Shown here piece by piece: positions 5,549 to 64,000 of a DNA stretch of 64,000 nucleotides (position 1 is the stretch's first letter; each line of letters begins with the position of its first letter). The DNA comes from Mycobacteriales bacterium (GTDB lineage: Bacteria > Actinomycetota > Actinomycetes > Mycobacteriales > Pseudonocardiaceae). The notes below the pieces were generated by a model, which ran no database searches, had not been told where the DNA came from, and was given only the letters and a program-made list of their open reading frames with translations. A program made the translations under genes and the position numbers. Location of the stretch: positions 20,276 through 84,275 of the forward strand of contig JBBSQN010000002.1 of assembly GCA_038257875.1 (NCBI GenBank). Direction: 5' to 3'.

Positions 5549-6999
<1,451 letters not shown>

Positions 7000-7000
<1 letters not shown>

Positions 7001-7383: not shown

Positions 7384-7394
7384 CTGGGGCCGCG

Positions 7395-7859
7395 ATGGGG
7401 GCGATGGCGCTCGTCGTCAGCATCCTGCTGGTGATCGCCTCCCTCTGTCTCGGATACCTGGCGTTTCGCAGAGTCCGGCTCATGCGGGGCGGCGGGGTGG
7501 ACGCGTGCCTGCGCCGCCGACCCGCCGCCGTGTCCCGGGCCGCGTCCCGGGACGCGTCGGCCGGGTGGCACTTCGGTGTCGGCCGCTACCAGGGCAACAC
7601 GCTGGCCTGGCACCGGCTGACCTCGTTGCGGCCGGGGCCCACGATCGTCCTCGACCGGACGGAGCTGGAGATCGTGGACCGGCGCGCGCCAGCCGGTGCG
7701 GAGACCTACGTCCTCCCGCACGCCGCCTCGGTGCTGCGCTGCCGGGCCGACGGTGTGGACGTGGAGCTCGCCATGGCACCCGGGGTGCTGACCGGCTTCC
7801 AGTCGTGGTTGGAGTCTGCCCCGCCCGGGCGCAACACCGGTTACCGCCAGGCGTCCTGA
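7395..7859 (+). CDS. DUF2550-family membrane-anchored protein (conserved atp-operon-trailing gene in actinobacteria)
   Basis: In-frame ATG at 7395 within ORF 6912..7859. It has an N-terminal TM helix, then GRYQGNTLAWHRL...LELAMAPGVLTGFQSWLESAPPG, matching my memory of DUF2550 proteins that follow atpC. Confidence 0.75.
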   Translation: MGAMALVVSILLVIASLCLGYLAFRRVRLMRGGGVDACLRRRPAAVSRAASRDASAGWHFGVGRYQGNTLAWHRLTSLRPGPTIVLDRTELEIVDRRAPAGAETYVLPHAASVLRCRADGVDVELAMAPGVLTGFQSWLESAPPGRNTGYRQAS

Positions 7860-7886
7860 CGCGCGAACCCGCGGGCTCGCGCGTCA
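7857..7886. terminator. Bidirectional stem-loop between convergent genes
   Basis: Perfect 10-bp stem TGACGCGCGA (7857-7866) / TCGCGCGTCA (7877-7886) with a 10-nt loop. It spans the stop of the DUF2550 gene and abuts the stop of the adenosyltransferase gene. There is no U-tract. Confidence 0.5.
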
Positions 7887-8462
7887 GGGGGCCGTCGGGC
7901 CACCGGGCCGCCACAGTACGTCACCGCCGGGGTTCGCGACCCGGCCGAGGATGAACAGCAGGTCGGAGAGCCGGTTCAGGTAGGTCGCGGTGAGCGGGTT
8001 GGTGCGTTCCGCGTCGAGTTCCAGCAGCGCCCACACCGAGCGCTCGGCTCGCCGGGTCACCGTCCGCGCGACGTGCAGGTAGGCCGCCCCGGCGGTGCCG
8101 CCCGGCAGGATGAACGAGTCGAGTGCCGGCAGCGGATCGTTGAACGCGTCGCACCAGCCCTCCAGCCGCGTCACGTAGCCGTCGGTGACCCGCAGCGGTG
8201 GGTACTGCGGGTTCTCGACGATCGGCGCGCACAGGTCCGCACCCACGTCGAACAGGTCGTTCTGGATCTGTCGCAGCGGGGCGAGCACCGCCTCGGCCAG
8301 GCCCCCCACCGTGACCGCGACTCCGATGGCGGCGTTGCACTCGTCGGTGTCGGCGTAGGCCGCGAGCCGCACGTCGGTCTTGCGGACGCGGCTGAAGTCG
8401 CCCAGGGCGGTGGTCCCGTCGTCCCCGGTCCTGGTGTAGATCCGGGTCAGGTGCACGGCCAT
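7884..8462 (-). CDS. Cob(I)yrinic acid a,c-diamide / cob(I)alamin adenosyltransferase, PduO type
   Basis: N-terminus IYTRTGDDGTT..G..V.K plus FILPGG...A.LHVART..RRAER are hallmark PduO-type ATR motifs. The start is taken at ATG 8462 (MAVHLTRIYT). Confidence 0.85.
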   Translation of the reverse strand: MAVHLTRIYTRTGDDGTTALGDFSRVRKTDVRLAAYADTDECNAAIGVAVTVGGLAEAVLAPLRQIQNDLFDVGADLCAPIVENPQYPPLRVTDGYVTRLEGWCDAFNDPLPALDSFILPGGTAGAAYLHVARTVTRRAERSVWALLELDAERTNPLTATYLNRLSDLLFILGRVANPGGDVLWRPGGPTAP

Positions 8463-8483
8463 GGTGGTGAGCATAGAGTCCGC

Positions 8484-9809
8484 TCAGCGCAGTTTTGCTC
8501 CCACGCCGATCAGCTTCTCGCGGAAGTTCTCGTAGCCGCGGTCGAGGATGGACACCCCCGTCACCGTCGAGTCACCTTGGGCGGCCAGCGCCGCCAGCAC
8601 GTAGGAGAAGCCTGCGCGCAGGTCCGGGACGTGGACGGTGGTCCCCTGCAGCTTCGTCGGCCCGACCACCACGGCCGAGTGCCTGCGGTTTCGCGACCCG
8701 AAGCGGCAGGGGGTGCGTCCGAGGCACTCGGTGAAGACCTGCATCTGGGCGCCGAGCGCCTGTAGCGCCGTGGCGTATCCCAGCCGGTTCTCGTGCACGG
8801 TCTCGTGCAGCACGGTGACACCGTCGGCCTGGGTCAGCGCGGTGACCATGGGTGACTGCCAGTCGGTCATGAAGCCCGGATGCACGTCGGTCTCGATGAC
8901 GAGCGGGCGCGGCATCGACTTCTCCCGCCGGAACGTCACCTCGTGGCCGTCGCTGGAGAAGTCGAACTCACCGCCCGCGCGCCGGTACACGTTCAGGTAG
9001 GTCCCAAGATCGGCCTGCCGCACGCCGCTGACGGTGATCCGGCCGTCGGTCGCGAGGGCGAGGCTCGCCCACGAGGCGGCTTCGAGGCGGTCCGGGATGG
9101 CGGTATGCGCCACGCCGCGCAGCCGGGAGACGCCCGTGACCTGGATGACCCGGCCCGGCTGGACGGTGATGAGCGCGCCCATGCGCTGGAGCAGCGAGAT
9201 CAGGTCGATGATCTCCGGCTCGGTCGCAGCGTTGCGCAGCTCCGAGTCGCCTGCGGCGACGACCGCGCCGAGCAGGAACTGCTCGGTCGCACCGACGCTC
9301 GGGTACTTCAGCTCGACGACGGCGCCCTGCAGCCCGCCGATCTCGGCTGTCAGCTTGAACCCGGTGTCGGTCCGCTCGCTCACCGCGCCGAAGGCGCGCA
9401 GCACCTCCAGGTGCAGGTCGACCGGGCGTTCGCCGATGCTGCACCCCCCGGGCTTCCAGACCTCCGCCTGACCGGTGCGGTGCAGCAGCGGCGCGCAGGT
9501 GAGTACCGGAATCCGGCTGCGGGCGTGGAAGTACTCCAGATCGCTCGTCGCGGCGGTGTGGATGTTGCCTGCTTCGATCCGCAGCTGACCGTCCGCCGGC
9601 TGCGCGGTGCTGCATCCCAACATCTCCAGCAGCTCCCCGACGAGCCGCGTGTCGACGATCTGCGAGATGTTGTGGATGATCACTGGCTCCTCGGTCAGGA
9701 GGGCCGCGACCATCAGCTTGGGTACCGCGTTCTTCGAGCCACGGATCTTGACCGTGCCGCAAAGCGGGATGCCGCCGGTCAGGTGCAGCGTGTCGCCGTC
9801 GTCCGTCAT
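8484..9809 (-). CDS. murA: UDP-N-acetylglucosamine 1-carboxyvinyltransferase
   Basis: 441 aa with full-length MurA/EPSP-synthase-fold similarity (GTVKIRGSKNA..K.MVAALL, catalytic-loop region PGGCSIGERPVDLH). Confidence 0.93.
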   Translation of the reverse strand: MTDDGDTLHLTGGIPLCGTVKIRGSKNAVPKLMVAALLTEEPVIIHNISQIVDTRLVGELLEMLGCSTAQPADGQLRIEAGNIHTAATSDLEYFHARSRIPVLTCAPLLHRTGQAEVWKPGGCSIGERPVDLHLEVLRAFGAVSERTDTGFKLTAEIGGLQGAVVELKYPSVGATEQFLLGAVVAAGDSELRNAATEPEIIDLISLLQRMGALITVQPGRVIQVTGVSRLRGVAHTAIPDRLEAASWASLALATDGRITVSGVRQADLGTYLNVYRRAGGEFDFSSDGHEVTFRREKSMPRPLVIETDVHPGFMTDWQSPMVTALTQADGVTVLHETVHENRLGYATALQALGAQMQVFTECLGRTPCRFGSRNRRHSAVVVGPTKLQGTTVHVPDLRAGFSYVLAALAAQGDSTVTGVSILDRGYENFREKLIGVGAKLR

Positions 9810-33728: not shown

Positions 33729-33835
33729 ATCCAGTACTTCGAGTTCGTGGCGGTCGACCGTGACGTGCTCCCTGATTCGATTGACCGGCGGGTGAGGCAG
33801 GATCTCGTCGCCGGTCAAGGGAGGGAGGTCGGGCG

Positions 33836-35890: not shown

Positions 35891-36199
35891 ATGAGCAACT
35901 ACTTCGATCTGGACGACGAGCTCGACGGCTACCTGTCCTGGGATGACGACGACGAGCCAGCACCTCCCCTGAACCTCGATCCGGGGCAGCGGGAGGCCCT
36001 CGCGGCCGCCGTCACGGCGGGCCTGCAGGAACGCGGGTGCGACCACTCACTACGGGCCGCGCGTGAGTGGGCCGCCGGCGCGGGTGTGGCCTGGCCGGCG
36101 TTGCAGGTGGCGCTCGAGGGCAACGGCGGCTACTGCGACTGTGAGGTCCTACTCAACGTCTTACCGCCCGACGACCCCGAGCCGGACGGCCCCTGCTGA
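35891..36199 (+). CDS. DUF2695-like small protein
   Basis: ATG 35891. The C-terminal part (ERGCDHSLRAAREWAAGAGVAWPALQVALEGNGGYCDCEVLLNV) matches my memory of DUF2695. Confidence 0.6.
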   Translation: MSNYFDLDDELDGYLSWDDDDEPAPPLNLDPGQREALAAAVTAGLQERGCDHSLRAAREWAAGAGVAWPALQVALEGNGGYCDCEVLLNVLPPDDPEPDGPC

Positions 36200-37709
36200 A
36201 CGGATCCCTGACCTCGCACACCTTCTTGTGTCCTCGCGCATGTTGGACGCGCTGATCCAGTCGAAGACCCACTTCGAGACGCTGGTGTTGTTGCAGACCA
36301 CGATGAACACGGGCGGGGTGGCGCCGGTCAGCGCCTCCGCACTGGCCTCCCACTCCTCGAACCGGCGCTGGTAGGCGCCGTAGAGCGCGCGCAGCGCCGT
36401 CTCCAGGACGTCGGGGACCTGCGTCGGGTCCAACGGGGCCTGGCCGCGCCGGCCACCCTTGGGCAGCTCGTCGCGGATCTGGGACCACAGGTCGAGATAG
36501 GTGACGGTGCGCGAGACCTGGTTGTCATCCACCGGCATGCGCGGGATCTTCACGATGCCCGACTCGATCGCGTCGGTCAGCGAGAAGTCGCTGACCGCCC
36601 ACGGGAACAGCGTGCCCTCCTGGTAGCCGGAGCCGCGCAGGAAGAACGGGGTGGCGGACAGGTCGTAGACGGTCTTGACGCCGACCGCCTTCTTGATCGC
36701 CGCCACCCCGGAGAACCAGACGCGGGCCTGCTCGTTGCGCTCGGTGGCCTCCGTGCGGTCGGCGCCGGCCAGTTTCACCTCGTCCGCGCGTCCCCGGTAG
36801 CAGTGGTGCGCCTCGTCGTTGAACACGACGAGCTCCTGGCTGCCGCCGAGGTCGCGGAGCACCCGGGTGACGACCTGGGCATCGGTCTCGGTGAACGGGC
36901 TCGGCCCCCCGCCCGGGTTGAGCACGTCCTTCGTCAGCCGGCTCACACCCCGGGCCGCGGCGAGCTCGCGGGGCAGGAAGGTGTGGTAGTTGGTGATCGC
37001 GATCTGCGCCTGGCCGAGCCCGCCGCGCAGCTCGGGCGGCACGAGGTCGCGCAGCAGGAAGTAGTTGTCGGGGTCCGACGGCAGGAGCACCCGGAGCCGG
37101 TCGCGGATCGTCAGGCCGGGCGTGACGACGAGGAAGCGCTTGGTGTAGGTCTTGCTCTGCGGCGTGGCGATCTTGTTCAGTACCTGCCAGGCGATGAGCA
37201 TGGCCATCACGACCGTCTTGCCGGATCCGGTGGCCATCTTCAGCGCCACCCGGTTGAGCCCGTCGTTGTGCTGGGCGTTGAGGGTGTCGAGGTCGTTGCG
37301 GATCCAGACGTCACCGGTGCGCGGCGCCACCTCGGCGGCGAAGATCGCGGTCTCGGCAGCCTCGCGCTGGCAGAACAGCACCCGGTTGTCGCGCTCGGGG
37401 TCGGCCCAGTACTCCAGCAGTCGCCGTGTCGTCGGGGTGACGTTCGAGTAGCCGGCGTGGCGCCACCGTGTGACGTGCTCCCGGATTCGGTTGATCAACG
37501 GGTTGGGCTGGATCTGGTCGGCGGTCAGCTCGGTCAGCTCCAGCTGCTGCCCGCCCTTGCGCGACTGCGGGACCGGGACGAAGTACTGACGACGGGCGAC
37601 GGCTCGCCGCCACCTGGTCGGTGATGCCGTCGGCGTCGAACTCGAAGTGGCAGGTCGGCTCGTCGTAGGGGCGGTTCAGGATCGGGTTCTCGATCACCGT
37701 GTCCGCCAC
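36161..37709 (-). pseudogene. Type III restriction enzyme Res subunit (SF2 helicase), frameshifted and C-terminally truncated; no Mod gene nearby
   Basis: N-terminus MADTVIENPILNRPYDEPTCHFEFDADGITDQV...RRPSS (frame of ORF 37311..37709) continues as YFVPVPQSRKGGQQLELTELTADQIQPNPLINRIREHV in the frame of ORF 36161..37498; there is one extra nucleotide at about 37586. Helicase motif I MATGSGKT and motif II FNDEAHH are present. Motifs IV-VI and the nuclease domain are absent, and similarity stops near 36235. Confidence 0.8.
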
Positions 37710-37805: not shown

Positions 37806-37856
37806 GGATCCTGGAGCGGTGACGGTTCCTCCATGATGTACCCGGCATCCTGGTCA
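37806..37856. repeat. Repeat R1 (copy of the right half of R2)
   Basis: GGATCCTGGAGCGGTGACGGTTCCTCCATGATGTACCCGGCATCCTGGTCA matches 39629-39679 at 45 of 51 positions by my count, in the same orientation. Confidence 0.8.
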
Positions 37857-37984: not shown

Positions 37985-38935
37985 GTGGTCACCCGTAGCG
38001 TCCGTGATGTGCCGTCGAGTCTGCATGAGGTGTTGATCGAGATGTTTCGGCAGCGTCCGTCGCTGGCCGCTGAGCTGCTGGCAGACGGGCTGGGAGTCCA
38101 GCTGCCGGGTTTCGAGCACGCTGAGGTGGAGTCCGGGGAGTTCACCGTGCTGACCCCGACGGAGTATCGGGCGGATGCGGTGGTGGTGTTGTCGGTCGCG
38201 GGGGTGGCGGTGTGGGCGGTGGTGGTCGAGGTCCAGCTGGGTCGGGATCCGGATAAGCGGTGGAGTTGGCCGGTCTACCTGGCCACGCTGCGTGGGCGGT
38301 TCCGCTGTCCGGCGGTGCTGTTGGTGGTCTGCGTCGATGCCGCGACGGCTGCCTGGTACGCCGCTCCGATCGAGTTGGGGCCCGGTGCGGTGGTGACGCC
38401 GATGGTGGTGGGTCCTGATCGGGTGCCGGTGGTGACCGACGTCGAGTACGCGGGTCGGGCTCCGGAGTTGGCGGTGCTCTCGGCCATCGCGCATGGGGGC
38501 GATCCGAACCGGAGCAAGGTGTTGGATGCGCTGCTGGCCGCGCTCGCGACGGTCGATCCTGATCGTGGTGGGCTGTACTGTGACCTGGTGTTGGCTGTGT
38601 TGCCGGAGGCTGCGCAGCGTTACTTGGAGGGGCTCATGGCCACGGGAACGTATGAGTACCGCAGTGACTTCGCACGTCGCTATTTCTTCGAGGGTAGGGA
38701 GGAAGGCGAGGCCGCAGGCAAGGCCGCGGGCAAGGCCGCGGGTAAGGAGGAAGGCATAGCGGAGGGCGAGGCCGCGGGTGAGGCTCGGGCGGTGCTGGCG
38801 GTGCTCGACGCCCGCGGGATCGACGTTCCCCCCGACACCCGCACCCGCATCGCCGAGTGTGCCGACCTCGACCAGCTCGACACCTGGGTGCGTCGCGCGG
38901 TCACCGCCGAGACCATCCACGACCTGTTTGACTAA
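37985..38935 (+). CDS. Rpn/YhgA-like PD-(D/E)XK putative recombination-promoting nuclease / transposase-like protein
   Basis: N-terminus SSLHEVLIEMFRQRPSLAAELL...TPTEYRADAVVVL...VVVEVQL. The C-terminal part has (EGxA/GKAA) repeats and ..RAVLAVLDARGIDVP...RIAECADLDQLDTWVRRAVTAETI.DLF, as I recall for this family. Confidence 0.6.
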   Translation: MVTRSVRDVPSSLHEVLIEMFRQRPSLAAELLADGLGVQLPGFEHAEVESGEFTVLTPTEYRADAVVVLSVAGVAVWAVVVEVQLGRDPDKRWSWPVYLATLRGRFRCPAVLLVVCVDAATAAWYAAPIELGPGAVVTPMVVGPDRVPVVTDVEYAGRAPELAVLSAIAHGGDPNRSKVLDALLAALATVDPDRGGLYCDLVLAVLPEAAQRYLEGLMATGTYEYRSDFARRYFFEGREEGEAAGKAAGKAAGKEEGIAEGEAAGEARAVLAVLDARGIDVPPDTRTRIAECADLDQLDTWVRRAVTAETIHDLFD

Positions 38936-39289: not shown

Positions 39290-39609
39290 CCCGCTGGTTC
39301 TACGTCGAGCTGCACTGCCAGGGCGAACCCACCGAGGACCTCGACGTCATCATGATCGCGCTGGACGTCGAGCCGGGTGAGGCCGACGCCGATGTTGGTG
39401 CGGACCTGGAAGCTGGCACCGTCGAATTCTGTGTGTCGGTGCTGGCCGACAACCCTGGCGAAGCTTTGCACCGGGCGCAGGCGTTCGTTCGATCCGCGCT
39501 GCACGCGGCTGGCACCAGTACACCGGGGTGGGAACGGATCACCGAGCTCGTCGACCGCGGCGAAGCTGTCGCGACCGTCCGTCCTTCCGCGCTGCTTGTC
39601 AGCTCCTGA
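39286..39609 (+). CDS. Hypothetical small protein 'X' (about 107 aa)
   Basis: GTG 39283/39286 overlaps the preceding stop, and the composition looks natural (acidic). Its last codons and stop (GTC AGC TCC TGA) lie inside repeat R2. Confidence 0.35.
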   Translation: MTRWFYVELHCQGEPTEDLDVIMIALDVEPGEADADVGADLEAGTVEFCVSVLADNPGEALHRAQAFVRSALHAAGTSTPGWERITELVDRGEAVATVRPSALLVSS

Positions 39610-39679
39610 ACAGCGGCGCTCCCGGATACGATCCTGGTGCTGTGACGATTCCTCCATGATGTACCCGGCGTCTTGGTCA
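39598..39679. repeat. Repeat R2 (composite: left half matches R3, right half matches R1)
   Basis: Left half 39598-39629, GTCAGCTCCTGAACAGCGGCGCTCCCGGATAC, matches 43387-43418 at 30 of 32 positions. Right half 39630-39679 matches R1. The junction CCCGGATAC/GATCCTGG is itself an imperfect palindrome. Confidence 0.8.
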
Positions 39680-39712: not shown

Positions 39713-42277
39713 TCACCGACGAGGCGTCACGCGTGTACGACTCCGCGCCTGGACTCGGAGGGCGTCGCGGATCTGCGCGTAGATGTCGGCCTGGACTGTC
39801 GTGTGCATTTCGATCGACGCGATGAGTCCGTATCGGATCGCGGAGTTGGGCCAGCCGGTAGCGATGCGGCAGTCGACGTTGACGGCGACGGCGTCGCCGG
39901 ACACGAACGCAAGGGCGGAGTTGCCCTCCAGGATCTCGTGTTGCACCGTACCTCTCCCGACCGCATGGTAATCCGCCTCGCATCGTGTGACCCCGTAGGC
40001 GTTGGCGGGTGGCTCGATCGTCAGCTTGGCCATGCGGTGGCGTTGGGACCGCGGGTTGACCGGTGATATCCACGCCAGTGTGAGCGTCAACCGGCGCCAC
40101 TCCTTTGTCGCGTGCAGCGCAGGCGGCAGTGGCAGGCTGAACTGCTGGCGCTGCTTGTCCATGATGGAACCGGCACCGAGCATAACGGCGCGGGTTCGGG
40201 CTGCGGTAGCGACACGGTGGGGATCGACCCGTCCGTATCCCAGAGCCTTCGTCAGTCCACCCCTGTTGAGCCCGAGCACGTCGGTGAGGGGAGCCGCCAG
40301 GTCTCGCCAGCTGGCGCTGTGCACCAGGAGTGCCTTGGCCAGCACCGGATGGTACTGCGGGTCCGGAAATGGGAAGCTGCTGCCTTCGGCGGTGAGTTCG
40401 TCGAGTACGTCGAAGATTCCGTGGCTCATCCGAGTGGCGAGCGCCGTCGCGTGGCTCGTGCCGACACCGTAGGCCGTGGCGTCAGCGCCGAATGTCCCAG
40501 GGGAGGCGACGAGCAAGCCGGGTCCACGAGCGGTCTGGCGGGCTCGCTGAAGCTCAACGGCGCCACGCGCCCCGGGTAGCGGGCGCTGGAACAGTTGCCG
40601 GCCACCGGGCATCAGCACTTCCGGTTTCACCGACCGCTGGTGTCCGGTACCGGCGGCACTGTAGCTGGCGGGCATCCCGCGCCCGACCGCGTCGAGCACG
40701 GTGTCCGACGGAGGAATCTCCGTCGCGTCGTCGTGAACGGCTCCGACCGTCACTACGTTGACGGCCTCGGCGGGAGACAGGAGCCGTCGGTGCCGTGCTT
40801 CTCCGTGCAGGGTGTGGAGCATCTCCTTCCGCATCCCGTCGACATCGCTCACCGCCTCGACAGAGACCACCGGTGAGCCCGGGTGGTTACCGGCGCTCAC
40901 CAGGATCAACAGGTTGTAGTGATCGGCCAGCCAGTCGAGCAGTGTGGCGAGCGGGCTGACCCGACGCACGAACACCCGTGCCGGGTCACCGAGAGACAGG
41001 TTGACGATGCGCACGCTCGGAGCTACCGCCGGATGCGTGCCGTCGCCTTCGAACATGCGGTGGAAGCAGCGGTGCAGCAGGTCGACGAGCAAGCGGTCCC
41101 GGGCGAGGGTTTCGGTGTCGAAGTACGGGTGTGGCTCCATCACAGGTCGCACGTAAAGCCGGCTGGACAGCGGCCGACCGGGTGACGATAGGTCGCCGTG
41201 ACAGATAAGCGACGCCATGGCTGTGCCGTGGTGCTGCCGAGCGCTGGTGTACCGAGAGGCGTAGTCGTCCGGATCGTCGACGAGGAGCCGGCCGGTGAGT
41301 GTCGTGTGGTTGACCAGCGGCAGGCCGTCAAGCAGCGCTGTCCGCGGCCTGCTCTCCGCGGGCAGCACGGCGTCGGCCGGAGACAGATACTCTGCCGGTT
41401 CGAGACCAGGGAGTCCCATCGGCTGAGCGGGCGCCACGAACGCGATCGTGTCGGAAACGAGCAGCGCGATCGCGTCGGGACCTTCGGCCAGGACTGTGTC
41501 GATCTGGTTGGGCGGCAGGTCCACGAGCAGCGCGTGGTACCGGATGGCCGGGATCACTGCGGAGCTCACGACGGTGCCATGGGCGTCCGCCACCAGTTGC
41601 GTAACCCGGGTCTGCACGGCAGCGCGTTTGCGATCGTCTACTCGAAACCATAGCTCGATCTCCACACGCGACAAGCCCCGGCCGCCCACGACGGCGACCT
41701 CCTCACGCCAGGCCTCCAGCAGCCCGGTCTCGCGGACCCGGTCGGCTGGCCCCCACCGGCGCACTGCCCTGAGCTGCGCGAACGCTGTCCTGAGCGGGGC
41801 CAGTCCGGCAGGGAAGGGCTCGTCTGGGTCGGCTTTCCACCGTGTGAAGAGCCGAACCAGCTCAGCGACCGCGCGTGCGTTCGACATCACCGTGTACAGC
41901 GTTTCCGGGACGGGCTGGCTGGTGGGACCCTCGGCCTTGACGATTGCGAAGTCTGCGTCGGCCTCGGCCTCGTCCTCGGTGAGCTCGGCGAGGAACTCCA
42001 GCCCGTCGATCCCGGCCACCGACCGGTGAAACTCGGTGACCGTGCCTGCCAGATCGAAGACGACGACCAGTTCAGGGTCCTGCTCATCGGTGGTCGCCAT
42101 GGTCCTGGCGCGCTCGGCCGTCAGCGCCTCGCTCAGTGCCATGAACTGGGGCTTTAACCGCTCGCCCTGACGTTGCGCTGACGGTCCGCGCGGTGGGCGA
42201 GGGAACCGTGGAGGTCCAGGAGGAATCGGCTCGCTGATCGGTGGTCCGAACGCCAGCAGTGGACGTGCGTCGGTCAT
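39713..42277 (-). CDS. ietS: S8 subtilase-domain protein with a large uncharacterised N-terminal domain (IetS-like)
   Basis: 854 aa with no signal peptide. Subtilase triad contexts: Asp (TALLDGLP), His (HHGTAMASLICH), oxyanion Asn (LVSAGNHPG) and Ser (GVGTSHATALA). It is translationally coupled to the upstream AAA ATPase gene. Confidence 0.8.
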   Translation of the reverse strand: MTDARPLLAFGPPISEPIPPGPPRFPRPPRGPSAQRQGERLKPQFMALSEALTAERARTMATTDEQDPELVVVFDLAGTVTEFHRSVAGIDGLEFLAELTEDEAEADADFAIVKAEGPTSQPVPETLYTVMSNARAVAELVRLFTRWKADPDEPFPAGLAPLRTAFAQLRAVRRWGPADRVRETGLLEAWREEVAVVGGRGLSRVEIELWFRVDDRKRAAVQTRVTQLVADAHGTVVSSAVIPAIRYHALLVDLPPNQIDTVLAEGPDAIALLVSDTIAFVAPAQPMGLPGLEPAEYLSPADAVLPAESRPRTALLDGLPLVNHTTLTGRLLVDDPDDYASRYTSARQHHGTAMASLICHGDLSSPGRPLSSRLYVRPVMEPHPYFDTETLARDRLLVDLLHRCFHRMFEGDGTHPAVAPSVRIVNLSLGDPARVFVRRVSPLATLLDWLADHYNLLILVSAGNHPGSPVVSVEAVSDVDGMRKEMLHTLHGEARHRRLLSPAEAVNVVTVGAVHDDATEIPPSDTVLDAVGRGMPASYSAAGTGHQRSVKPEVLMPGGRQLFQRPLPGARGAVELQRARQTARGPGLLVASPGTFGADATAYGVGTSHATALATRMSHGIFDVLDELTAEGSSFPFPDPQYHPVLAKALLVHSASWRDLAAPLTDVLGLNRGGLTKALGYGRVDPHRVATAARTRAVMLGAGSIMDKQRQQFSLPLPPALHATKEWRRLTLTLAWISPVNPRSQRHRMAKLTIEPPANAYGVTRCEADYHAVGRGTVQHEILEGNSALAFVSGDAVAVNVDCRIATGWPNSAIRYGLIASIEMHTTVQADIYAQIRDALRVQARSRTRVTPRR

Positions 42278-43236
42278 GAGGTCGGTTGAGCCCTCCGTTG
42301 ACGGAGCCGGCTACACACGATCTCGTTGAGGTCAGCGCTGGGAAGGGCCAGGACGTAGCGTCGCCGGACGTCGTGCGCGAACTGCTCCAGCTCGGCATAG
42401 CTGGCTCCCGGCAGCCGGTCGGCCAGCGTGCGGGGCGCCAGACCCAGGCCGCCACCGAGGTGAGCGACCAACGACTGCAGGAACCGAGTGGCCTCGGCCC
42501 GAGACGGCGGGCTTAGCGTCAGGCGCAGCTGGAAGCGTCGCCACGCGGCACGGTCGAGCAGTTCGCCGTGATTGGTGGCGCACACGACGATGACGTGTGC
42601 AGGCAGTCGGTCGATCTGCAGCAGCAGCGTGGAGACCACGCGTTTGATCTCTCCTGTCTCGTGCGTGTCGGCCCGCTCCTTGGCAAGGGTGTCGAACTCG
42701 TCGAAGAACAGCACGCAGCGGCGGGTGCGGGCGAACTCGAAGACGTGGTCGAGCCGGCCAGCCGTCTCCCCGAGGAAACTTGACACCACACCCTCGTAGC
42801 GCACAACGTAGAGCGGTAGCAGGGTCTCCGCGGCGATGGCCTCGGCGAGGCTAGTTTTGCCGTTGCCCGGCGGGCCGTCGAGCAAGATGCGGTTGCGCGG
42901 TTCGATGCCATGACTGCGCAGCAGCTCAGCTCGATGGTGCTCCTCGATCACCTCCGCGGTCGCGCTGGCTACTTCCTCGCTGAGTTGCACGTCGACGAGC
43001 CGGCGGCGAGGGACGATCTCGTGCAGCAGGTCGGCCATCGGCCGGGCGCGGTCGTCGCGGGTCAGCAGCTCTGTGCTTCCCGCGGTGGTGATCAGCTCCG
43101 ACAGCCGGTCGGCGACGAGATGGTGCTGGTTGCTGCGCTCCTCGGCAATGATCGCTTCCACCAGCACCCGAAAGCGCGCGACGTCCCCGCGCCGCTGCGC
43201 CTCGACGAGGTCGATGACCAGGTCGGACCGCGCCAT
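42274..43236 (-). CDS. ietA: AAA-family ATPase (IetA-like)
   Basis: Start ATG 43236 preceded by GGAGGGG. Walker A GPPGNGKT, Walker B VLFFDEFD, sensor-1 VVCATN and an RRF arginine region. The stop overlaps the start of the S8 gene (42274-42277). The ORF-track start at 43425 reads through repeat R3 and is unlikely. Confidence 0.8.
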   Translation of the reverse strand: MARSDLVIDLVEAQRRGDVARFRVLVEAIIAEERSNQHHLVADRLSELITTAGSTELLTRDDRARPMADLLHEIVPRRRLVDVQLSEEVASATAEVIEEHHRAELLRSHGIEPRNRILLDGPPGNGKTSLAEAIAAETLLPLYVVRYEGVVSSFLGETAGRLDHVFEFARTRRCVLFFDEFDTLAKERADTHETGEIKRVVSTLLLQIDRLPAHVIVVCATNHGELLDRAAWRRFQLRLTLSPPSRAEATRFLQSLVAHLGGGLGLAPRTLADRLPGASYAELEQFAHDVRRRYVLALPSADLNEIVCSRLRQRRAQPTS

Positions 43237-43386
43237 CACCCCTCCATCCCGCCGTAGCTCTTTGGCAACTCTACGGCGCACCCCTGTCAATGACCTGGTG
43301 CCTCGCGGCATTTGATGCTGCCGCCCACCCGTGGAAGATCGGTTCGAGCGGTAGACTGCGATGCTGAACCGGTTGAGCTGGTCGCC

Positions 43387-43418
43387 GTCAGCTCCTGAAC
43401 CGCGACGCTCCCGGATAC
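43387..43418. repeat. Repeat R3 (copy of the left half of R2)
   Basis: GTCAGCTCCTGAACCGCGACGCTCCCGGATAC. The about 70 nt to its left look like a degraded copy of the 3' end of gene X (about 65-70% identity by eye, with indels). Confidence 0.75.
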
Positions 43419-43521
43419 TGTTCACGCAGGTCGCGGACCTTCAGTGGAGCAACGGATCACTCAACGGCTCTGTGAGCTGCCGTAGGGGTCGTGTACACCA
43501 CGTGGAAGGAGCTGGGACGAC

Positions 43522-43573: not shown

Positions 43574-43798
43574 TCAGGTGAGGTCGTCGAACTTGCCTGC
43601 CTTGACGCCGGTGATCCAGGCGTCCAGCTCGGCGCGGGTGAACAGGACCGCGCCCTGGTCGGGGTGGTTGCTGTTGCGCACGGCGACCCGGCCGTCTCGT
43701 AGCGGGGCGACCTCGACGCAGTCCGGGACGTCCGCGCCGCCGCCGCCGGAGAAGCTGCTCTTGCGCCACCGGGCGTGGGCCAGTGCGTCGTCGGTCAT
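43574..43798 (-). CDS. DUF397 domain protein
   Basis: 74 aa with WRKSSFSGGGG..CVEVA.....VAVRNS..P....L.FT..E..AWI..VKAG.FD, the typical DUF397 signature. Confidence 0.88.
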   Translation of the reverse strand: MTDDALAHARWRKSSFSGGGGADVPDCVEVAPLRDGRVAVRNSNHPDQGAVLFTRAELDAWITGVKAGKFDDLT

Positions 43799-43819
43799 CC
43801 CGCGACCTCCTTCAAGGGG

Positions 43820-44749
43820 TCATCCGTAGCCGTTCGCGGCATCGGTGATCAGCTTCACCGAGTCGGCCGGGGACAGGGACTGCTCGGTGAGGATACCGAA
43901 GCGCAACGTGTAGGTCCGTACGCGCTCCCGATCTTCGAGGTAGACCGCGCGGCCCGATCCCTCGGCGTAGCCGACGTCCGGCATGGGATCGGGCAGCGTC
44001 AGGATCGAGAACGGTCCCTCCAGCGCGGGGCTGGCTCCCACGGACTTCGGCAGCACCTGGATCGTGACGTGCGGGGCGTCCGCCGCCTCGACGAGCCGGC
44101 GGAGCTGGTTGCGCATCACCAGCGGCGACCCGACCGGTCGTTCGAGCACCCCGGCGTCCAGGATGGCGTGCAGCCGGGGTGGTGTGGCGCGGGTGAGGAG
44201 CTGCTGGCGGGTGAGGCGGGCGGCGACCCGCCGTTCGACCTCGCCCTCGGCGAGGTCCGGGTGGATGCCGCTGATCAGCGCGCGGGCGTACTCGGCGGTC
44301 TGGAGCAGCCCTGGCACCAGCAGCGTCTCGAACTGGCGGCGCGCCACCAGCGCGGCCTCCCACTCGAGCATCTCGTGGAAGTTCCGCGGGACGTTCTTGC
44401 GGATGTCGACCATCCAGCCGCGCTCGTTCGCGGTGCTGGCGAGCTCGAGCAGCCAGTCGCGGAGGTCCTGGTCGGTCACGCCGTAGACATCGAGCATCTG
44501 CTCCACCTCGCGCGGCTTGATGCCGTGCAGGCGGTTCTCGATGCGGGAGAGCTTGGGGCGCGACCACCTGCCCGGCCCTTTGCGCAGCTCGGCGACGACC
44601 TGGTCATGGGTGAGATCGGCCTGTTCGCGGAGCTGGCGAAGCTTCTCGGTGAGCTGCCACCGCCGGACCGTCGCGCTGACAGGGCCGCTGTCCTGGGTCA
44701 CGATCAACCTCCGCACTGACGAGTGCTGACGCACGCGTCCGTACGCCAT
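43820..44749 (-). CDS. XRE-family HTH regulator with a DUF5753-type C-terminal domain (partner of DUF397)
   Basis: HTH LRQLREQADLTHDQVVAEL..S.SKLSRIENG, followed by the C-terminal domain that commonly accompanies DUF397 genes in actinomycetes. Confidence 0.85.
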   Translation of the reverse strand: MAYGRVRQHSSVRRLIVTQDSGPVSATVRRWQLTEKLRQLREQADLTHDQVVAELRKGPGRWSRPKLSRIENRLHGIKPREVEQMLDVYGVTDQDLRDWLLELASTANERGWMVDIRKNVPRNFHEMLEWEAALVARRQFETLLVPGLLQTAEYARALISGIHPDLAEGEVERRVAARLTRQQLLTRATPPRLHAILDAGVLERPVGSPLVMRNQLRRLVEAADAPHVTIQVLPKSVGASPALEGPFSILTLPDPMPDVGYAEGSGRAVYLEDRERVRTYTLRFGILTEQSLSPADSVKLITDAANGYG

Positions 44750-47076: not shown

Positions 47077-48336
47077 TCAGGACGTGTCGCGCCATAACCA
47101 CTCCACCGGCGCAACGGTGAGCCGATCACCGATCCGCTGAGCCTGATCACCGGTGTTGAGCAGCAACCCTTCCACGAACCGCTCACCGAGCCGCTCGCGC
47201 AGGTGCACCAGACCGCGGACCGTCGCGGAGCCGACCTGGCTCCCGGCCTTCACCTCGATCGCGACGACCCGCCCGTCGTTCGCCTCCAGAACCAGAGCGA
47301 CCTCCAGGCCGTCGGCGGTCCGGTAATGGTGCGGGCGAGCCGCGGTCTCCGACCACCCGAGCTGCTTGATCACCTCGGTCACCACGAACGTCTCCAGCAG
47401 GGCTCCGAAGTGCTCCGCACCGACCGGATCGTTCGGTGCCAGCCGACTTGCATCGAGACCCAGCAGATGCGCGGCGAGACCGCTGTCGACGAGGTGGATC
47501 TTCGGTCGCTTCGTCGCCCGCGAGGACGGGTTCGTCGACCAGGCCGGTAGCTCGACGGTCAGGTAGACCAGCTCCAGCAGTCGCAGGTAGGTCGCTGCCT
47601 GGTCGCGGCCCAACCCGACGTCCCGGCCGAGGTCGGCGGCGTTACGTGTCTGCCCGGTGTTCGCCGCCGCCAGCCTCAGGAACCGCCGCAGGGTGTCAGA
47701 GCGGCGGACGGTCGTCACGTCGTCGGAGATCCGCTCGACGACGAGCTCGGCCAGGTTGGCGAACCACCGCGACCGCGCATCGGCGGGCAAGCCGACTGCG
47801 ATCGGATAGCCACCGCGCAGCACGATCTCCACCAGCTCGGCACGGCTTATCGCCGAGGTGCGGCGTCGCGGAACCTCGCCCGCGAACAGCCGGTCGACGA
47901 CCGAAGAAGCGCCGGGCTCCAGCTCCGCCATCGCGAACGGCCACAGCCGGAGCAGCTCCACCCGGCCGGTCAGATAGTCGGCGAGCTCGGGCACGGCGTC
48001 GTGCCGGGCGGATCCGGCCAGCAGGAAGCGGCCAGGTCGCCACTCTCGGTTCAGCTCGGCCTTGATCACACCGAGCAGATCGGGCACCCGCTGGAACTCG
48101 TCGATCACCACCGGCTCGGGGAGGTCGCGGACGAACGCGGCCGGATCGGCGGCGGCCAGTCGCCGCACAGCCGGATCGTCGAGATCGACAAGCGTGCCGC
48201 CGGTCCGGTCGACGACCGTTTGGGTCAGGGTGCTCTTGCCCGCGGTTCGTGCTCCGGTGATCGCGACGACCGGGCTGGTTCGCATCGCTGCATCCAGGCC
48301 AGGAGCAACACGGCGAGCGACCTGACCCGACATCAC
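47077..48336 (-). CDS. AAA-superfamily ATP-binding protein with a DUF4143-type C-terminal domain
   Basis: Walker A ITGARTAGKST, Walker B-like VVIDEFQRVPDL, and the C-terminal region typical of the AAA_14/DUF4143 architecture. Confidence 0.85.
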   Translation of the reverse strand: MMSGQVARRVAPGLDAAMRTSPVVAITGARTAGKSTLTQTVVDRTGGTLVDLDDPAVRRLAAADPAAFVRDLPEPVVIDEFQRVPDLLGVIKAELNREWRPGRFLLAGSARHDAVPELADYLTGRVELLRLWPFAMAELEPGASSVVDRLFAGEVPRRRTSAISRAELVEIVLRGGYPIAVGLPADARSRWFANLAELVVERISDDVTTVRRSDTLRRFLRLAAANTGQTRNAADLGRDVGLGRDQAATYLRLLELVYLTVELPAWSTNPSSRATKRPKIHLVDSGLAAHLLGLDASRLAPNDPVGAEHFGALLETFVVTEVIKQLGWSETAARPHHYRTADGLEVALVLEANDGRVVAIEVKAGSQVGSATVRGLVHLRERLGERFVEGLLLNTGDQAQRIGDRLTVAPVEWLWRDTS

Positions 48337-48476: not shown

Positions 48477-50708
48477 TCAAGGCGAGCCCTTGGACGGCTG
48501 CGGGACCAGCCACAGCACGCCAGCCGGGGGTAGTCGTAGCTTCGCCGACGCCGGGCGGCCGTGCCAGGGTCGGTTCGTGGCCTCGACGGTGCCGAGGTTG
48601 CCTACGTCGGACCCGCCGTAGGCCGCCGCGTCGGTGTTGAGCAGCTCGTGCCAGCGGCCGGCGAACGGCAGGCCTACTCGGTAGTCCTCGTTCGGGGTGC
48701 CGGCGAAGTTGGCGATGCAGGCCAACACCACCGGCTGACCGTCGGCGTCGACGCCGTGGCGCAGGAAGCTCAGCACGTTGCCTGAGGCGTCGTTGGCGTC
48801 GATCCAGGAGAAGCCCTCGGGTGTGGTGTCGTGCGTCCACAGCGCCGGGTGGGACCGGTAGGCGCGGTTGAGGTCGCCGACGAGCGCCTTGATGCCCGCG
48901 TGCAGCGGATCGTCGAGCAGGTGCCAGTCCACCGAACCCGACTCCGACCACTCCCGCTCCTGGCCGAGCTCGCCACCCTGGAACAGCAGCTGCTTGCCCG
49001 GGTGCGCCCACATGAAGGCTAGCAGCGTACGGAGCCCGGCGGCCTTGTTCCAGGCGTCGCCGGGCATCCGCGTCCACAGCGAGCCCTTGCCGTGCACGAC
49101 CTCGTCGTGGGACAGCGGCAGCACGAAGTTCTCGCTGAACGCGTACATCAGCGAGAACGTCAGCTGGTTGTGGTGGTAACCGCGATACAGCGGATCGCGC
49201 CCGACGTACTCGAGCGTGTCGTGCATCCACCCCATGTTCCACTTGAACCCGAAACCCAGCCCGCCGAGATGCGTGGGGCGGGAGACGCCGGGCCACGCCG
49301 TCGACTCCTCGGCGATCGTGATCACGCCGGGGTGGCGCCGGTACACCGTCGCGTTCATCTCCTGCAGGAACGCCACCGCGTCGAGATTTTCCCGGCCGCC
49401 GTGGACGTTGGGTAGCCACTGCCCCTCGGGGCGGGAATAGTCCAGGTAGAGCATGCTCGCCACCGCATCGACCCGCAGGCCGTCGATGTGGAACTCCTCG
49501 AGCCAGTACAGCGCGTTGGCGACGAGGAAGTTGCGTACCTCGGTGCGTCCGAAGTTGAAGATGAACGTGCCCCAGTCGAGCTGCTCGCCGCGGCGCGGGT
49601 CGGCGTGCTCGTAGAGCGGGGTGCCGTCGAAGCGCGCCAGCGCCCACTCGTCACGCGGAAAGTGCGCCGGCACCCAGTCGATGATCACGCCGTAGCCGGC
49701 CTGGTGCAGGTGGTCGACGAAGTAGCGGAAGTCGTCGGGCGCGCCGAACCGTGCGGTGGGGGCGTAGTAGGAGGTGACCTGGTAGCCCCAGGAGCCGCCG
49801 AACGGGTGCTCGGCCACGGGCAGCAGCTCGATGTGGGTGAAGCCCGTCTCGTCCAGGTACTCGACGAGCTGGTGCGCGAGCTCTCGGTAGCTCAGCCCCT
49901 GGCGCCAGGACCCGAGGTGCACCTCGGAGACGCTCATCGGGCCCGCGTGCGCCGGACGCTGCGCCCGCGCCGCCATCCACTCGGCGTCGGCCCATTCGTG
50001 GCTCGAGACGTCGACCACCGACGCCGTCGCCGGCGGGACCTCGGTGGCGAAGGCCATTGGGTCGGCCTTGTCGCGCCAGTGCCCGTCGGCGCCGAGGATG
50101 CGGAACTTGTAGCGGGTGCCCGGCCCGACGCCCGGGACGAACAGCTCCCACACCCCCGTGCTGCCCAGCGCGCGCATCGGGTGCGTCCAGCCCGACCAGC
50201 CGTCGAAGTCGCCGGTGACGCGCACGCCCTGCGCCGTCGGCGCCCACACCGCGAAGCTGGTGCCGGTGACCGGACCGGCGGGTGTGTCGTAGCGGCGAAC
50301 GCGCGCGCCCAGCACGTCCCACAGCCGCTCGTGGCGACCCTCGCCGATCAGGTGTAGGTCCACCTCGCCGAGCGTGGGCAGCCAGCGGTAGGGGTCGTCG
50401 ACGACGTCGACGTGCTCGCCGTAGCGGACGGCCAGCCGGTAGTCCCCGGGCGGTCCGGGCACCACCCCGGAGAACAGGCCGGCGTCGTGCACCTTGACCA
50501 GCGGGTGACCCGTGCTGCTGCCCTCCCGCACGACCTGCACCGCGTCGGCGTGCGGCCGCAGGGCGCGGACGAGGATGCCGTCGGGATGGGCGTGGGCGCC
50601 GAGCACCGCGTGCGGATCGTGGTGTGCACCGGCGAGGATCCGGTCGACGGTGGCCGGGTCCGGGGCGCCGGGGTTGATCGTCGGGGTGGGGTTCTCCTCG
50701 TGATCCAC
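48477..50708 (-). CDS. glgB: 1,4-alpha-glucan branching enzyme
   Basis: 743 aa of GH13 family with conserved regions ([42 protein letters not shown]). Confidence 0.95.
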
Positions 50709-62564: not shown

Positions 62565-63181
62565 GTCTGCTTCCAACGCAGCGACCCCGCGATCGCGTCG
62601 AACAGCGTGACCATCGCGTCGGCGATCGGGTCGATCGGCGTGCTGAACGACAGCAGCAGCATCTCCGCCTTGTTCGGCACCGGCACGTACACCTGCAGGC
62701 GGGTGACCGGAAGCTCCCCGGTCGAGAGGCCGTCCACCTCGTCCACCGACTCCCGCCGCCGTACCCGGGCAGCCGGCGCCCCGGCCACCTCCAGCACACC
62801 CACCTCATCGTCGGGTTGATCGCCCATCATCGCCGCCAGCTCCGCTGCCGGCAGCTCCGTTCCCACACCGGTCGGGACCACGGTGACCAGGCACGACGCC
62901 GCCACCGGCAGCCCGCGCATCAGATCGACGCTCAGGTACATGTCGGTCGCGCCGTTGCGCACCGCCCGCTCGGCCATCCGGGTCAGCTCGACCTCCAGCT
63001 CCCGGCGCAGCGTGGCCACCCGGTCCCGCGGCAACGACGCCAACCGGTTGTCGAGCAGCGCCGTGACCGACTGCCCGCGGCGCTCGTCCAGCGGGACGTG
63101 CCACCACCCCGGCGGCAGCATCAGCGACCATCCGGCCGGCCAGCTATTCTCGACGACTCCGTCGGTGGTTGGACTGCTCAT
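62561..63181 (-). CDS. Hypothetical protein, 'P' family copy 3
   Basis: 206 aa from ATG 63181. Clear paralog of 51449..52078 (LMLPPGWWHVPL; ASLPRDRVATLRRELEVEL; VTLFDAIAGSLRWKQT). Confidence 0.62.
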   Translation of the reverse strand: MSSPTTDGVVENSWPAGWSLMLPPGWWHVPLDERRGQSVTALLDNRLASLPRDRVATLRRELEVELTRMAERAVRNGATDMYLSVDLMRGLPVAASCLVTVVPTGVGTELPAAELAAMMGDQPDDEVGVLEVAGAPAARVRRRESVDEVDGLSTGELPVTRLQVYVPVPNKAEMLLLSFSTPIDPIADAMVTLFDAIAGSLRWKQT

Positions 63182-63209
63182 CAGTTGCTCACCTTCGACG
63201 GTACGGTCC

Positions 63210-63416
63210 TCACTCTGTGGGACCTGTTCCCCGGCTCGATCCCGCCTCCCGGGTGAAGCTCGGCTTAATGGCCTCGAACACGAGCGTCGTGCCCGGATCG
63301 TCGGCTGTCTCGGCCCCGGCGTCCAGACCCATCTGCTGCGCGATCCGCCTGAGATGTCGGGCCAGATCACTGGAGACAGCGGCAGGGTCAGCTACATGCT
63401 TCTCGTTATCCACCAC
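63210..63416 (-). CDS. Possible small protein (about 68 aa)
   Basis: GTG 63416/63413. The high-GC part of ORF 63210..63617 (..HVADPAAVSSDLARHLRRIAQQMGLDAG..) is coding-like. The upstream part of that ORF crosses the low-GC segment and is probably not coding. Weak call. Confidence 0.25.
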   Translation of the reverse strand: MVDNEKHVADPAAVSSDLARHLRRIAQQMGLDAGAETADDPGTTLVFEAIKPSFTREAGSSRGTGPTE

Positions 63417-63570
63417 CGCTCCCACCTGACTGTCGAGCCGCAGCAGAGCGGTCCGTAATGATCCAGGGGCCTGCCACCTGTGGCAACCCGAACCGTTGAT
63501 ATGTCTGCTTGTTGTAACCAAGGGTCGCTCCATTGCTGGTGGTCTTATCTGAAGTTGGGTTGGACTGAAC

Positions 63571-63810
63571 TCAGGGAGAATCTGCGTCATAGTCCAAGAA
63601 GAACTCTTCCTTTTCATTTTTCATGGTGCCGCCTAGCGATTTAAGGAATGCCGCTAAAGTGTCTACTGGTATCGGGAAAGAATCAACCATTGGATCCGTA
63701 GCTGCAATGTTTAGTGCTGATCGAAACCACTCTCTGACGAGATCGTTGACTTGTATCTCAGTCAGTAGCTTTTCGCCGTCCCGCTCGTAACCGCGGATAA
63801 CCCAACTCAT
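63571..63810 (-). CDS. Putative immunity protein for the upstream rRNase toxin (79 aa, low-GC gene)
   Basis: ATG 63810 overlaps the toxin stop (ATGA, 63807-63810). The protein is acidic and of small size. GC content is conspicuously lower than the rest of the window (about 45% by eye). Confidence 0.65.
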   Translation of the reverse strand: MSWVIRGYERDGEKLLTEIQVNDLVREWFRSALNIAATDPMVDSFPIPVDTLAAFLKSLGGTMKNEKEEFFLDYDADSP

Positions 63811-64000
63811 GGATCGACCCTACGTCTCGGATTCGCAGGCTTTGTTTGTTCGCCTGTATTGGGATCGAACTCCCCGACGTGACGACCTTTCTTATTGTAA
63901 ACTTCTACTGCGCCATGTTGGCGGTCCCACTCATATATCTTTCCCTCGGGATCTTTCCAGCGCGGGCGCAGGCCGCCGCCTCCCTGGACGGGTGTTTTAG
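63807..64000 (-). CDS. C-terminal end of a polymorphic toxin with a colicin E3-like (16S rRNase, 'cytotoxic') domain; the gene continues beyond the window
   Basis: Not in the ORF track because the frame is open to the window edge. The minus-strand translation is ..KTPVQGGGGLRPRWKDPEGKIYEWDRQHGAVEVYNKKGRHVGEFDPNTGEQTKPANPRRRVDP*. It is colinear with the colicin E3 C-terminus as I remember it (GGGKRKRWTGDKGRKIYEWDSQHGELEGYRASDGQHLGSFDPKTGNQLKGPDPKR). Confidence 0.8.
   Translation of the reverse strand, partial: KTPVQGGGGLRPRWKDPEGKIYEWDRQHGAVEVYNKKGRHVGEFDPNTGEQTKPANPRRRVDP

Follow-up and report, generated by a model that had tools for sequence, protein, structure and literature searches.

An intact IetAS module of the ~855-residue IetS subfamily in an actinomycete of the family Pseudonocardiaceae

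IetAS, a pair of an ATPase (IetA) and an S8 (subtilase) protease (IetS), was reportedly presented as an anti-phage system by Gao et al. in 2020. The pair was first described on pTiC58 as a plasmid-stabilising toxin-antitoxin pair, in which the ATPase serves as the antitoxin to a toxic protease (PMC13069673). Defence by the tested homologues needs the protease activity, and a construct with a mutant ietA could not be cloned (PMC13069673). The ietAS of B. cereus shows an abortive infection-like behaviour and becomes toxic upon the expression of yosG of SPbeta (10.1101/2022.08.27.505566). IetAS has been found in 54% of Propionibacterium freudenreichii strains (PMC12755874), and defence-finder tools report it routinely, in other bacteria as in actinobacteria. 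The present analysis concerns such a pair on the minus strand of a 64,000-nucleotide (nt) stretch of DNA (the window, in which positions are counted below) from a Mycobacteriales bacterium of the Pseudonocardiaceae (assembly GCA_038257875.1, contig JBBSQN010000002.1, positions 20,276 to 84,275). A preliminary description of the window had proposed the pair as an IetAS-like candidate and had held that no mechanism is established for the system, a statement that agrees with the literature: the anti-phage mechanism ‘remains unknown’ as of 2026 (PMC13069673), and a literature search found no paper on the IetAS mechanism.

Both proteins of the window match IetAS models of PADLOC from end to end. 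IetS aligns with PDLC04233 over residues 1-847 (model positions 1-851 of 855, E 2.6e-282) and matches seven more IetS models, and IetA aligns with PDLC04232 over residues 1-317 (1-319 of 330, E 6.1e-142) and matches three more IetA models. The two genes are adjacent and on the same strand, with ietA first. Since both models match end to end, the pair is an intact IetAS system and not just an IetAS-like one, and the combination of an ATPase with an S8 protease, which had first suggested the family, is now confirmed as that of a family member by strong, full-length profile matches. The locus is a further member of an already catalogued family and is less novel than the preliminary description implied. 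On the whole, it is considered likely that the cassette is a genuine and intact IetAS module of the subfamily with an IetS of ~855 amino acids (aa), that it was acquired horizontally, and that it works as the toxic-protease/restraining-ATPase defence that published work on other IetAS would lead one to expect.

The ietA gene (42274..43236, minus strand) encodes a classic-clade AAA+ ATPase of 320 aa, and ietS (whole coding sequence at 39713..42277, minus strand) encodes a cytoplasmic S8 protease of 854 aa. The stop codon of the former and the start codon of the latter overlap in an ATGA at 42274..42277 (minus strand); on direct reading the junction is ...CCG ACC TCA TGA CC..., and the ATGA is common to both genes. 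The list of open reading frames (ORFs) gives an ATG ORF of 854 aa at 39713..42277 (-) and an AAA ORF at 42274..43425 (-), so that the two overlapping minus-strand genes described earlier are borne out by the list as well as by the letters. The longer GTG start of ietA at 43425 was rejected and the ATG at 43236 was preferred, because a Shine-Dalgarno-like GGAGG lies 4 nt 5' of this ATG (43241..43245, minus strand), because the homologues of 79 loci align from residue 1, because the PADLOC IetA model likewise aligns from the first residue, and because the nearest relative can be aligned at the DNA level no further than 43248.

The motifs that had been quoted for the two proteins were all found in their contexts. 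IetA carries GPPGNGKT (aa 121-128, with the Walker A K127 encoded at 42856-42858), VLFFDEFD (aa 175-182, with the Walker B E180 encoded at 42697-42699), VVCATN (aa 217-222, with the sensor-1 N222), WRRF (aa 232-235, with the arginines at 233-234) and a pore-loop-like SFLGE at aa 153-157. The Pfam family AAA (PF00004) covers aa 117-240 (E 1.5e-28, 100.3 bits against a gathering score of 21.2). The closest solved relatives in a PDB sequence search are VAT, p97, NVL and AFG2 at ~1e-39, and the SSFLGE of IetA aligns with the pore loop SKWVGE of VAT, with FLG 154-156 at the place of WVG. Hence IetA shows the PF00004 match, the aromatic-hydrophobic-Gly pore loop and the arginines of the second region of homology that define the classic clade, and its nucleotide-binding and hydrolysis motifs are intact. 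The domain match, the motifs and the evidence for the start site together confirm the 320-aa classic AAA ATPase of the preliminary description, and IetA retains the features typical of an unfoldase.

Likewise, IetS has a complete active-site set. The motifs are LLDGLP (aa 315-320), HHGTAMASL (349-357), SAGNHPG (461-467) and GVGTSHATA (604-612), and the codons of D317, H350, the oxyanion N464 and S608 lie at 41327-41329, 41228-41230, 40886-40888 and 40454-40456, respectively. All four residues are invariant in 45 close homologues and at least 95% conserved in 78 cross-phylum homologues. The triad follows the subtilase order Asp-His-Ser (D317 < H350 < S608), and Pfam Peptidase_S8 (PF00082) matches aa 340-682 (E 1.3e-16, 61.2 bits against a gathering score of 21.8). 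The protease would therefore seem catalytically competent as far as residues can tell. The S8 catalytic domain, delimited by PF00082 and by subtilase matches in Foldseek, spans about aa 306-688 (40214..41362, minus strand), and it is followed by a C-terminal beta-sandwich of ~165 aa (about aa 689-854 plus the stop codon, 39713..40213, minus strand), which is supported by AlphaFold2 (AF2) strands at 696-824 and by BLASTP. This last domain is common to the IetS of pTiC58, as the BLASTP alignment reaches aa 836, and its invariant residues among the 78 cross-phylum homologues are W736, R748, G776-T777-x-Q779-H780 and C803. The subtilase had been assigned to the C-terminal half of the protein; its catalytic contexts stand, and its position is corrected to a central one with a separate domain after it. 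Hydropathy gave no signal peptide and no transmembrane segment (maximum KD12 in the first 70 aa 0.98, maximum KD19 1.42), and on this measure alone IetS lacks the signal peptide or membrane anchor of a secreted subtilase or proprotein convertase. IetS is accordingly placed in the cytoplasm on hydropathy, as was supposed when no signal peptide was noticed.

IetS has matches in more than 3,300 database clusters; those listed are mostly of ~855-870 aa with a few shorter ones, and the relatives listed (Pseudonocardia, Blastococcus, Mycobacterium) are named at most ‘S8 family peptidase’. A neighbourhood survey with one genome per species found 567 loci, of which 80 were kept. These 80 all cover roughly aa 5-850 of IetS, at 48-74% identity in Actinomycetota and 36-43% in other phyla (Proteobacteria, Planctomycetota, Chloroflexota, Firmicutes, Spirochaetes and others). 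In 79 loci, ietS is immediately preceded on its own strand by a gene for an IetA homologue (49-91% identity), and the one exception begins at a contig end. After clustering of the flanking ORFs, the shared clusters were IetS (80 loci) and IetA (78), and the next ones reached 15, 13, 11, 10, 10 and 9 loci; by PADLOC these are HsdM, HsdR and HsdS of type I restriction-modification (R-M) and BrxC, PglXI, BrxHI/HII and PglZ of BREX. R-M or BREX genes thus surround or adjoin the pair in about 27 of the 80 loci (type I R-M genes in 15, BREX or BREX-type helicase genes in 12), and the typical nested orders are hsdM-hsdS-ietA-ietS-(hsdS)-hsdR and brxC-pglXI-ietA-ietS-brxH-pglZ.

The nesting in type I R-M operons (survey loci L022, L024, L030-L033, L047, L055, L066, L068, L070, L073 and L074) and in BREX type 3 operons (L025, L028, L036, L039, L041, L042, L045, L046, L067 and L069) occurs in distant phyla. 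The actinobacterial and acidimicrobial loci are mostly stand-alone, with a RecD-like helicase or a restriction-like gene of type IIG or type II as an occasional neighbour. No reference to IetAS within BREX or R-M operons came up in a literature search, which is not to claim that the nesting is unreported. With IetA and IetS as the only shared genes and with R-M and BREX type 3 genes next in frequency, the surroundings are the reverse of what a conserved housekeeping locus would show. The role in conflict rather than in housekeeping proteolysis, which the preliminary description had favoured, is supported by the profiles, by the defence neighbours of the relatives and by the absence of a signal peptide. 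As for helicases, L026 has a large SNF2-type helicase, which clusters with BrxH, directly upstream of ietA (6096-8969 of that locus), and large RecD-like SF1 helicases occupy the same place in L010 (5786-8779), L015 (34-3447) and L016 (169-3915). Plasmid records with a relative of IetS number 94, of which 42 are conjugative, and a tblastn search of IetS against 50,697 phage records gave no match.

The cassette looks horizontally acquired, because the DNA homology to the nearest relative is limited to it, its composition is atypical and relatives of its IetS occur on plasmids. In the nearest relative, a metagenome-assembled genome (MAG) of Pseudonocardiaceae with 77% identity, nucleotide homology covers 39746-43248 only, which is to say the two genes. 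The GC content at third codon positions (GC3) is 0.79 in ietS and 0.835 in ietA, against 0.93 in the nearby glgB and 0.91-0.95 in several neighbours.

The N-terminal region of IetS (aa 1-305, 41363..42277, minus strand) had earlier been found to resemble nothing recognisable, and this is still so: no Pfam family covers it, a PDB sequence search with its profile gave no match at E<=10, and Foldseek of its model against the PDB gave weak matches to tandem ACT/ferredoxin-like folds (TM-score 0.2-0.3). No match at E<=1e-3 was obtained among the viral structures of BFVD. As the full-length profile also lacks a PDB match at E<=1e-3, no structure of an IetS would seem to have been solved. The AF2 model of full-length IetS is confident (pLDDT 81.9, pTM 0.86). 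By AF2 secondary structure, the region consists of a Pro-rich tail (1-33), a long helix (34-54), two beta-alpha-beta-beta-alpha-beta (ferredoxin-like) modules at about aa 71-174 and 203-283, and a hypervariable linker (286-307). The tail has a pLDDT of 80-89 in the full-length model against 45-56 in the model of the isolated region, a contrast which suggests that it may pack on the rest of IetS.

A search with the N-terminal 335 aa gave 1133 matches among 1.84 billion cluster representatives, and in the best 150 of these the region is always N-terminal in proteins of ~850-880 aa or their fragments. Since these 150 have one architecture, the region does not behave as a shuffled module. Over the 78 cross-phylum IetS homologues, the identity is 33-46% in the N-terminal segments, 45% in the S8 domain and 41% in the C-terminal domain; the linker falls to 13% against 35-46% in its flanks. 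The conserved charged or aromatic residues of the region are R40, R173, W175, D179, R180, E206, E208 and W210. The preliminary description had named this domain as the obvious candidate sensor, an idea that is weakened because the region is about as conserved as the S8 domain and is confined to a single architecture. These features argue for a regulatory, autoinhibitory or IetA-docking role over that of a rapidly diversifying phage sensor, and the region could still bind a conserved ligand or IetA.

The predicted structure gives a hint of what such regulation might be. Foldseek of full-length IetS against the PDB gave subtilases, and the top ranks are pro-forms and enzymes with C-terminal beta-domains: ProN-Tk-SP (3afg, 1.6e-17), PCSK9, pro-Tk-subtilisin (8.5e-11), EpiP, S1P and furin/Kex2, against about 2e-7 for mature subtilisins. 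The second ferredoxin-like module appears to sit at the position of the subtilisin I9 propeptide, with the linker and then the S8 domain after it. On the hypothesis drawn from predicted topology and conservation, IetS might be built like a zymogen, in which the tail, the helix and the two ferredoxin-like modules precede the S8 domain.

On the favoured reading, a bare two-gene cassette was acquired horizontally into a variable region of the chromosome of a Pseudonocardia-like actinomycete. How the pair might act can be pictured from published work on other IetAS. IetS would be a toxic cytoplasmic protease, and IetA an ATP-hydrolysing, Cdc48/VAT-like hexameric remodeller that keeps it harmless. 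A signal that the phage encodes or induces would break this restraint, and the freed IetS would then cleave cellular (or phage) proteins, with growth arrest or abortive infection as the outcome. The predicted structure adds that IetA, with its pore-loop Ar-Phi-Gly motif, probably acts on the N-terminal region of IetS and so keeps the protease inactive or returns it to that state. The anti-phage or toxicity phenotype of this pair is extrapolated from other IetAS subfamilies.

Several points weigh against so direct a transfer. The NCBIfam model IteS_antiphage (NF042956) gives 68.6 bits against an equivalog cut-off of 900 and aligns with aa 419-656 only, and IteA_antiphage (NF042959) gives 212.7 bits against a cut-off of 510. 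With scores far below these cut-offs, the pair belongs to a different subfamily from the phage-tested type and is not its equivalog; by sequence comparison, the subfamily with an IetS of ~855 aa is distinct from both the pTiC58 and the NCBI equivalog types. To our knowledge, there is no phage-tested member of this subfamily. The N-terminal profile has an hhalign probability below 1% against the N-termini of the IetS of pTiC58 and of a Klebsiella plasmid, so that regulation could differ. The propeptide-like reading comes from secondary-structure topology and Foldseek ranking and not from a residue-level superposition. Scans for sigma-70 and terminator consensus sequences around the cassette gave none above the shuffled expectation. 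Moreover, the ietAS of E. coli alone gave limited protection in one study.

A bolder account joins autoinhibition to guarding. In this account, the IetS of the subfamily would be a zymogen autoinhibited by its N-terminal region, and an IetA hexamer would continuously thread or reset that region and so restrain the protease. In many genomes the pair would serve type I R-M or BREX type 3 operons as a guard that is triggered once anti-restriction proteins of a phage put these systems out of action, much like PrrC, an anticodon nuclease whose gene lies within the type Ic R-M operon EcoprrI. Taken as a whole, the account is rather improbable. Of similarly low probability is the narrower proposal that the pair is no autonomous system but an accessory or guard of restriction systems, which is kept latent by an R-M or BREX complex, or monitors one, until anti-restriction proteins inactivate the complex; the window copy would then be an orphan next to a decayed restriction gene. 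Such a role is favoured by the relatives that lie within or next to type I R-M or BREX type 3 operons (about 27 of 80 loci), by the non-random co-localisation of RM III and ietAS in E. coli (10.1101/2022.08.21.504612) and by a restriction pseudogene 2 kb off in the window. However, about 50 of the 80 loci, nearly all the actinobacterial ones included, have no R-M or BREX partner, and since most loci are stand-alone the role cannot apply generally. Cloned two-gene ietAS systems work alone (PMC13069673; 10.1101/2022.08.27.505566), and unrelated autonomous systems are commonly embedded in R-M/BREX operons too (10.1101/2024.01.29.577857).

For the toxic-protease/restraining-ATPase defence, the defence context is given by the recurrent R-M/BREX neighbours of the relatives together with two features of the window, namely the restriction pseudogene and a candidate defence ATPase. 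The former, downstream of the cassette (36161-37709, minus strand), preserves the N-terminal half of a restriction endonuclease of the BPTD_3080 family (NCBIfam NF046055); it matches model positions 1-51 and 70-484 of 970 with a frameshift between them, and the C-terminal half is missing. The restriction remnant noticed earlier is therefore real. A relic of 58-72 nt of the 5' part of this pseudogene lies at 33745-33817, with 83% nt identity to 37470-37527. The latter is a PDC-S01 candidate defence ATPase (AAA_14 + DUF4143; 47077-48336, minus strand), which matches its PADLOC model in full length (E 6.6e-145), lies 4 kb from IetAS and is directly followed by the housekeeping gene glgB (48477-50708). 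The order upstream of the cassette is DUF397, XRE/DUF5753, a RibD_C protein, PDC-S01 and glgB. The DUF397 small protein and the XRE-type helix-turn-helix/DUF5753 regulator (43574-44749, minus strand) are directly upstream of the cassette; they are probably what had been taken for a toxin-antitoxin module, an assignment that is not upheld here, as no toxin-antitoxin family was identified for these two genes.

For the neighbouring 316-aa ORF (37985-38935, plus strand), neither Pfam nor PADLOC gave a match and NCBIfam gave none that was meaningful. The ORF is a member of a large multi-copy hypothetical family of Pseudonocardia/Pseudonocardiaceae with up to 93% identity and several paralogues per MAG, which points to a Pseudonocardia-like source for the window, and it holds a 12-nt tandem repeat (38689-38784) that encodes (E/K)AAG repeats. 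A search of the Rfam families, over 35-46 kb at E<=1 and over the whole window at the gathering score, gave no RNA family. At its far end (63001-64000) the window has a GC content of 0.59 against about 0.70 elsewhere.

The ends of the cassette carry short repeats, which were located by a repeat search and blastn. A junction repeat L|R lies 3' of ietS at 39598..39679 (L 39598-39629, R 39630-39679), a second copy of L (94% identical) lies 150 nt upstream of ietA at 43387..43418, and a second copy of R (90% identical) lies left of a neighbouring 1.8-kb segment at 37807..37856. The 32-nt L pair thus brackets the cassette and the 50-nt R pair brackets the 1.8-kb segment, in the layout x.R - 1.8-kb segment - L.R - ietS/ietA - L.y. 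No further copies were found elsewhere in the window, in the fetched loci or in metagenome contigs. The ‘repeat-bounded slot’ described earlier is thus real, but its bracketing repeats are short (32 nt) and part of a more complex, three-copy pattern. A classical att-site reading was rejected, as the three copies have no common core at the L|R breakpoint, and so was the reading of the repeats as ends of the 316-aa gene family, as the homology to a Pseudonocardia paralogue excludes them. The pattern could have arisen if a circularised alternative allele of the slot had integrated by a single crossover, and a two-cassette array would fit it as well.

Such a rearranged, repeat-bounded slot also suits the view that the pair is mainly an addiction (post-segregational killing) module, which stabilises mobile DNA or an islet and has no dedicated anti-phage role. 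The original description on pTiC58 (PMC13069673) and the 94 plasmid records, 42 of them conjugative, point the same way. Nevertheless, the window copy is chromosomal, no mobility gene was found between 31 and 48 kb, and a tRNA scan of the window found none, so that there is no tRNA-linked island boundary; the relatives, moreover, lie repeatedly within R-M/BREX operons and not beside replication or partition genes. An addiction role is plausible and could coexist with defence; as the main explanation it is given about the same low credence as the narrower guard proposal. That the pair is a housekeeping two-component protease like FtsH, Lon or the proteasome, in which IetA unfolds substrates for the S8 protease, is very unlikely: the closest solved relatives of IetA are indeed unfoldases (VAT, p97, PAN, FtsH), the pore-loop motif is kept and the gene pairing is obligate, but the spread over phyla is patchy, the neighbourhoods vary, the codon composition is atypical with homology limited to the cassette, the pair is carried on plasmids, and in published genetics the protease is toxic without the ATPase (PMC13069673).

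The locus is not special in itself. Its value lies in the very large, cross-phylum IetS subfamily of fixed architecture to which it leads. The N-terminal region of this subfamily is highly conserved and resembles no solved structure, and the pair recurs as an insert in operons of type I R-M and BREX type 3. Such features raise the hypotheses of a zymogen-like autoinhibition, of the ATPase as a resetting factor and of a guard role, for which the actinobacterial homologues are suggested as test material. In genome annotation, such genes at present carry no more than the names ‘S8 family peptidase’ and ‘ATP-binding protein’. If the account of a zymogen and guard were true, IetAS would have its first mechanistic model, and a new example would be at hand of a guard built into immunity that targets DNA.

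Among the known systems, the comparison may start from the more distant ones. The subtilase zymogens with an I9 propeptide (Tk-SP, pro-Tk-subtilisin, PCSK9, furin/Kex2) head the structural matches to the AF2 model of IetS, and they share with it a beta-alpha-beta-beta-alpha-beta module just before the S8 domain and a beta-sandwich after it. However, these zymogens are secreted and their propeptides are autocleaved, whereas IetS is cytoplasmic and has an extra module, a helix and a tail. With PrrC the likeness is one of gene position alone: homologues of the window pair are likewise placed between hsdS and hsdR, which suggests a comparable guard arrangement, but PrrC is an ABC-ATPase-like nuclease and IetAS is an AAA+ ATPase with an S8 protease, and the window copy is not embedded in an R-M operon.

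The IetAS variants come closer. The ietHAS system (Liu-DS4; ietAS with a SNF2 helicase; PMC13069673) has the same IetA/IetS core, and some relatives of the window pair (L026, L010, L015 and L016) have a helicase beside ietA. In contrast, the window cassette has no adjoining helicase and no SNF2 gene in its operon; upstream of ietA there is intergenic DNA and then the DUF397 gene, and downstream of ietS there are a repeat and an unrelated gene. The Gao-type IetAS (NF042959/NF042956) similarly consists of two genes, an AAA+ ATPase and an S8 protease, and the window pair falls far below its equivalog cut-offs. The founding pair of pTiC58 was recovered from an Agrobacterium Ti plasmid, with DNA 100% identical to NC_003065.3. 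Unlike that pair, the window copy is chromosomal and in a high-GC actinomycete, the first ~200-300 aa of the two IetS proteins have no detectable relation, and the IetS of pTiC58 matches the PADLOC IetS models at E ~1e-25 against 2.6e-282 for that of the window. Nonetheless, the ATPase gene precedes the S8 protease gene in both, the IetA-like protein is 36% identical over aa 1-255 (tblastn), the S8 and C-terminal domains of IetS are 24% identical over aa 208-836 (E 5e-10), and both pairs match the PADLOC IetA and IetS models.

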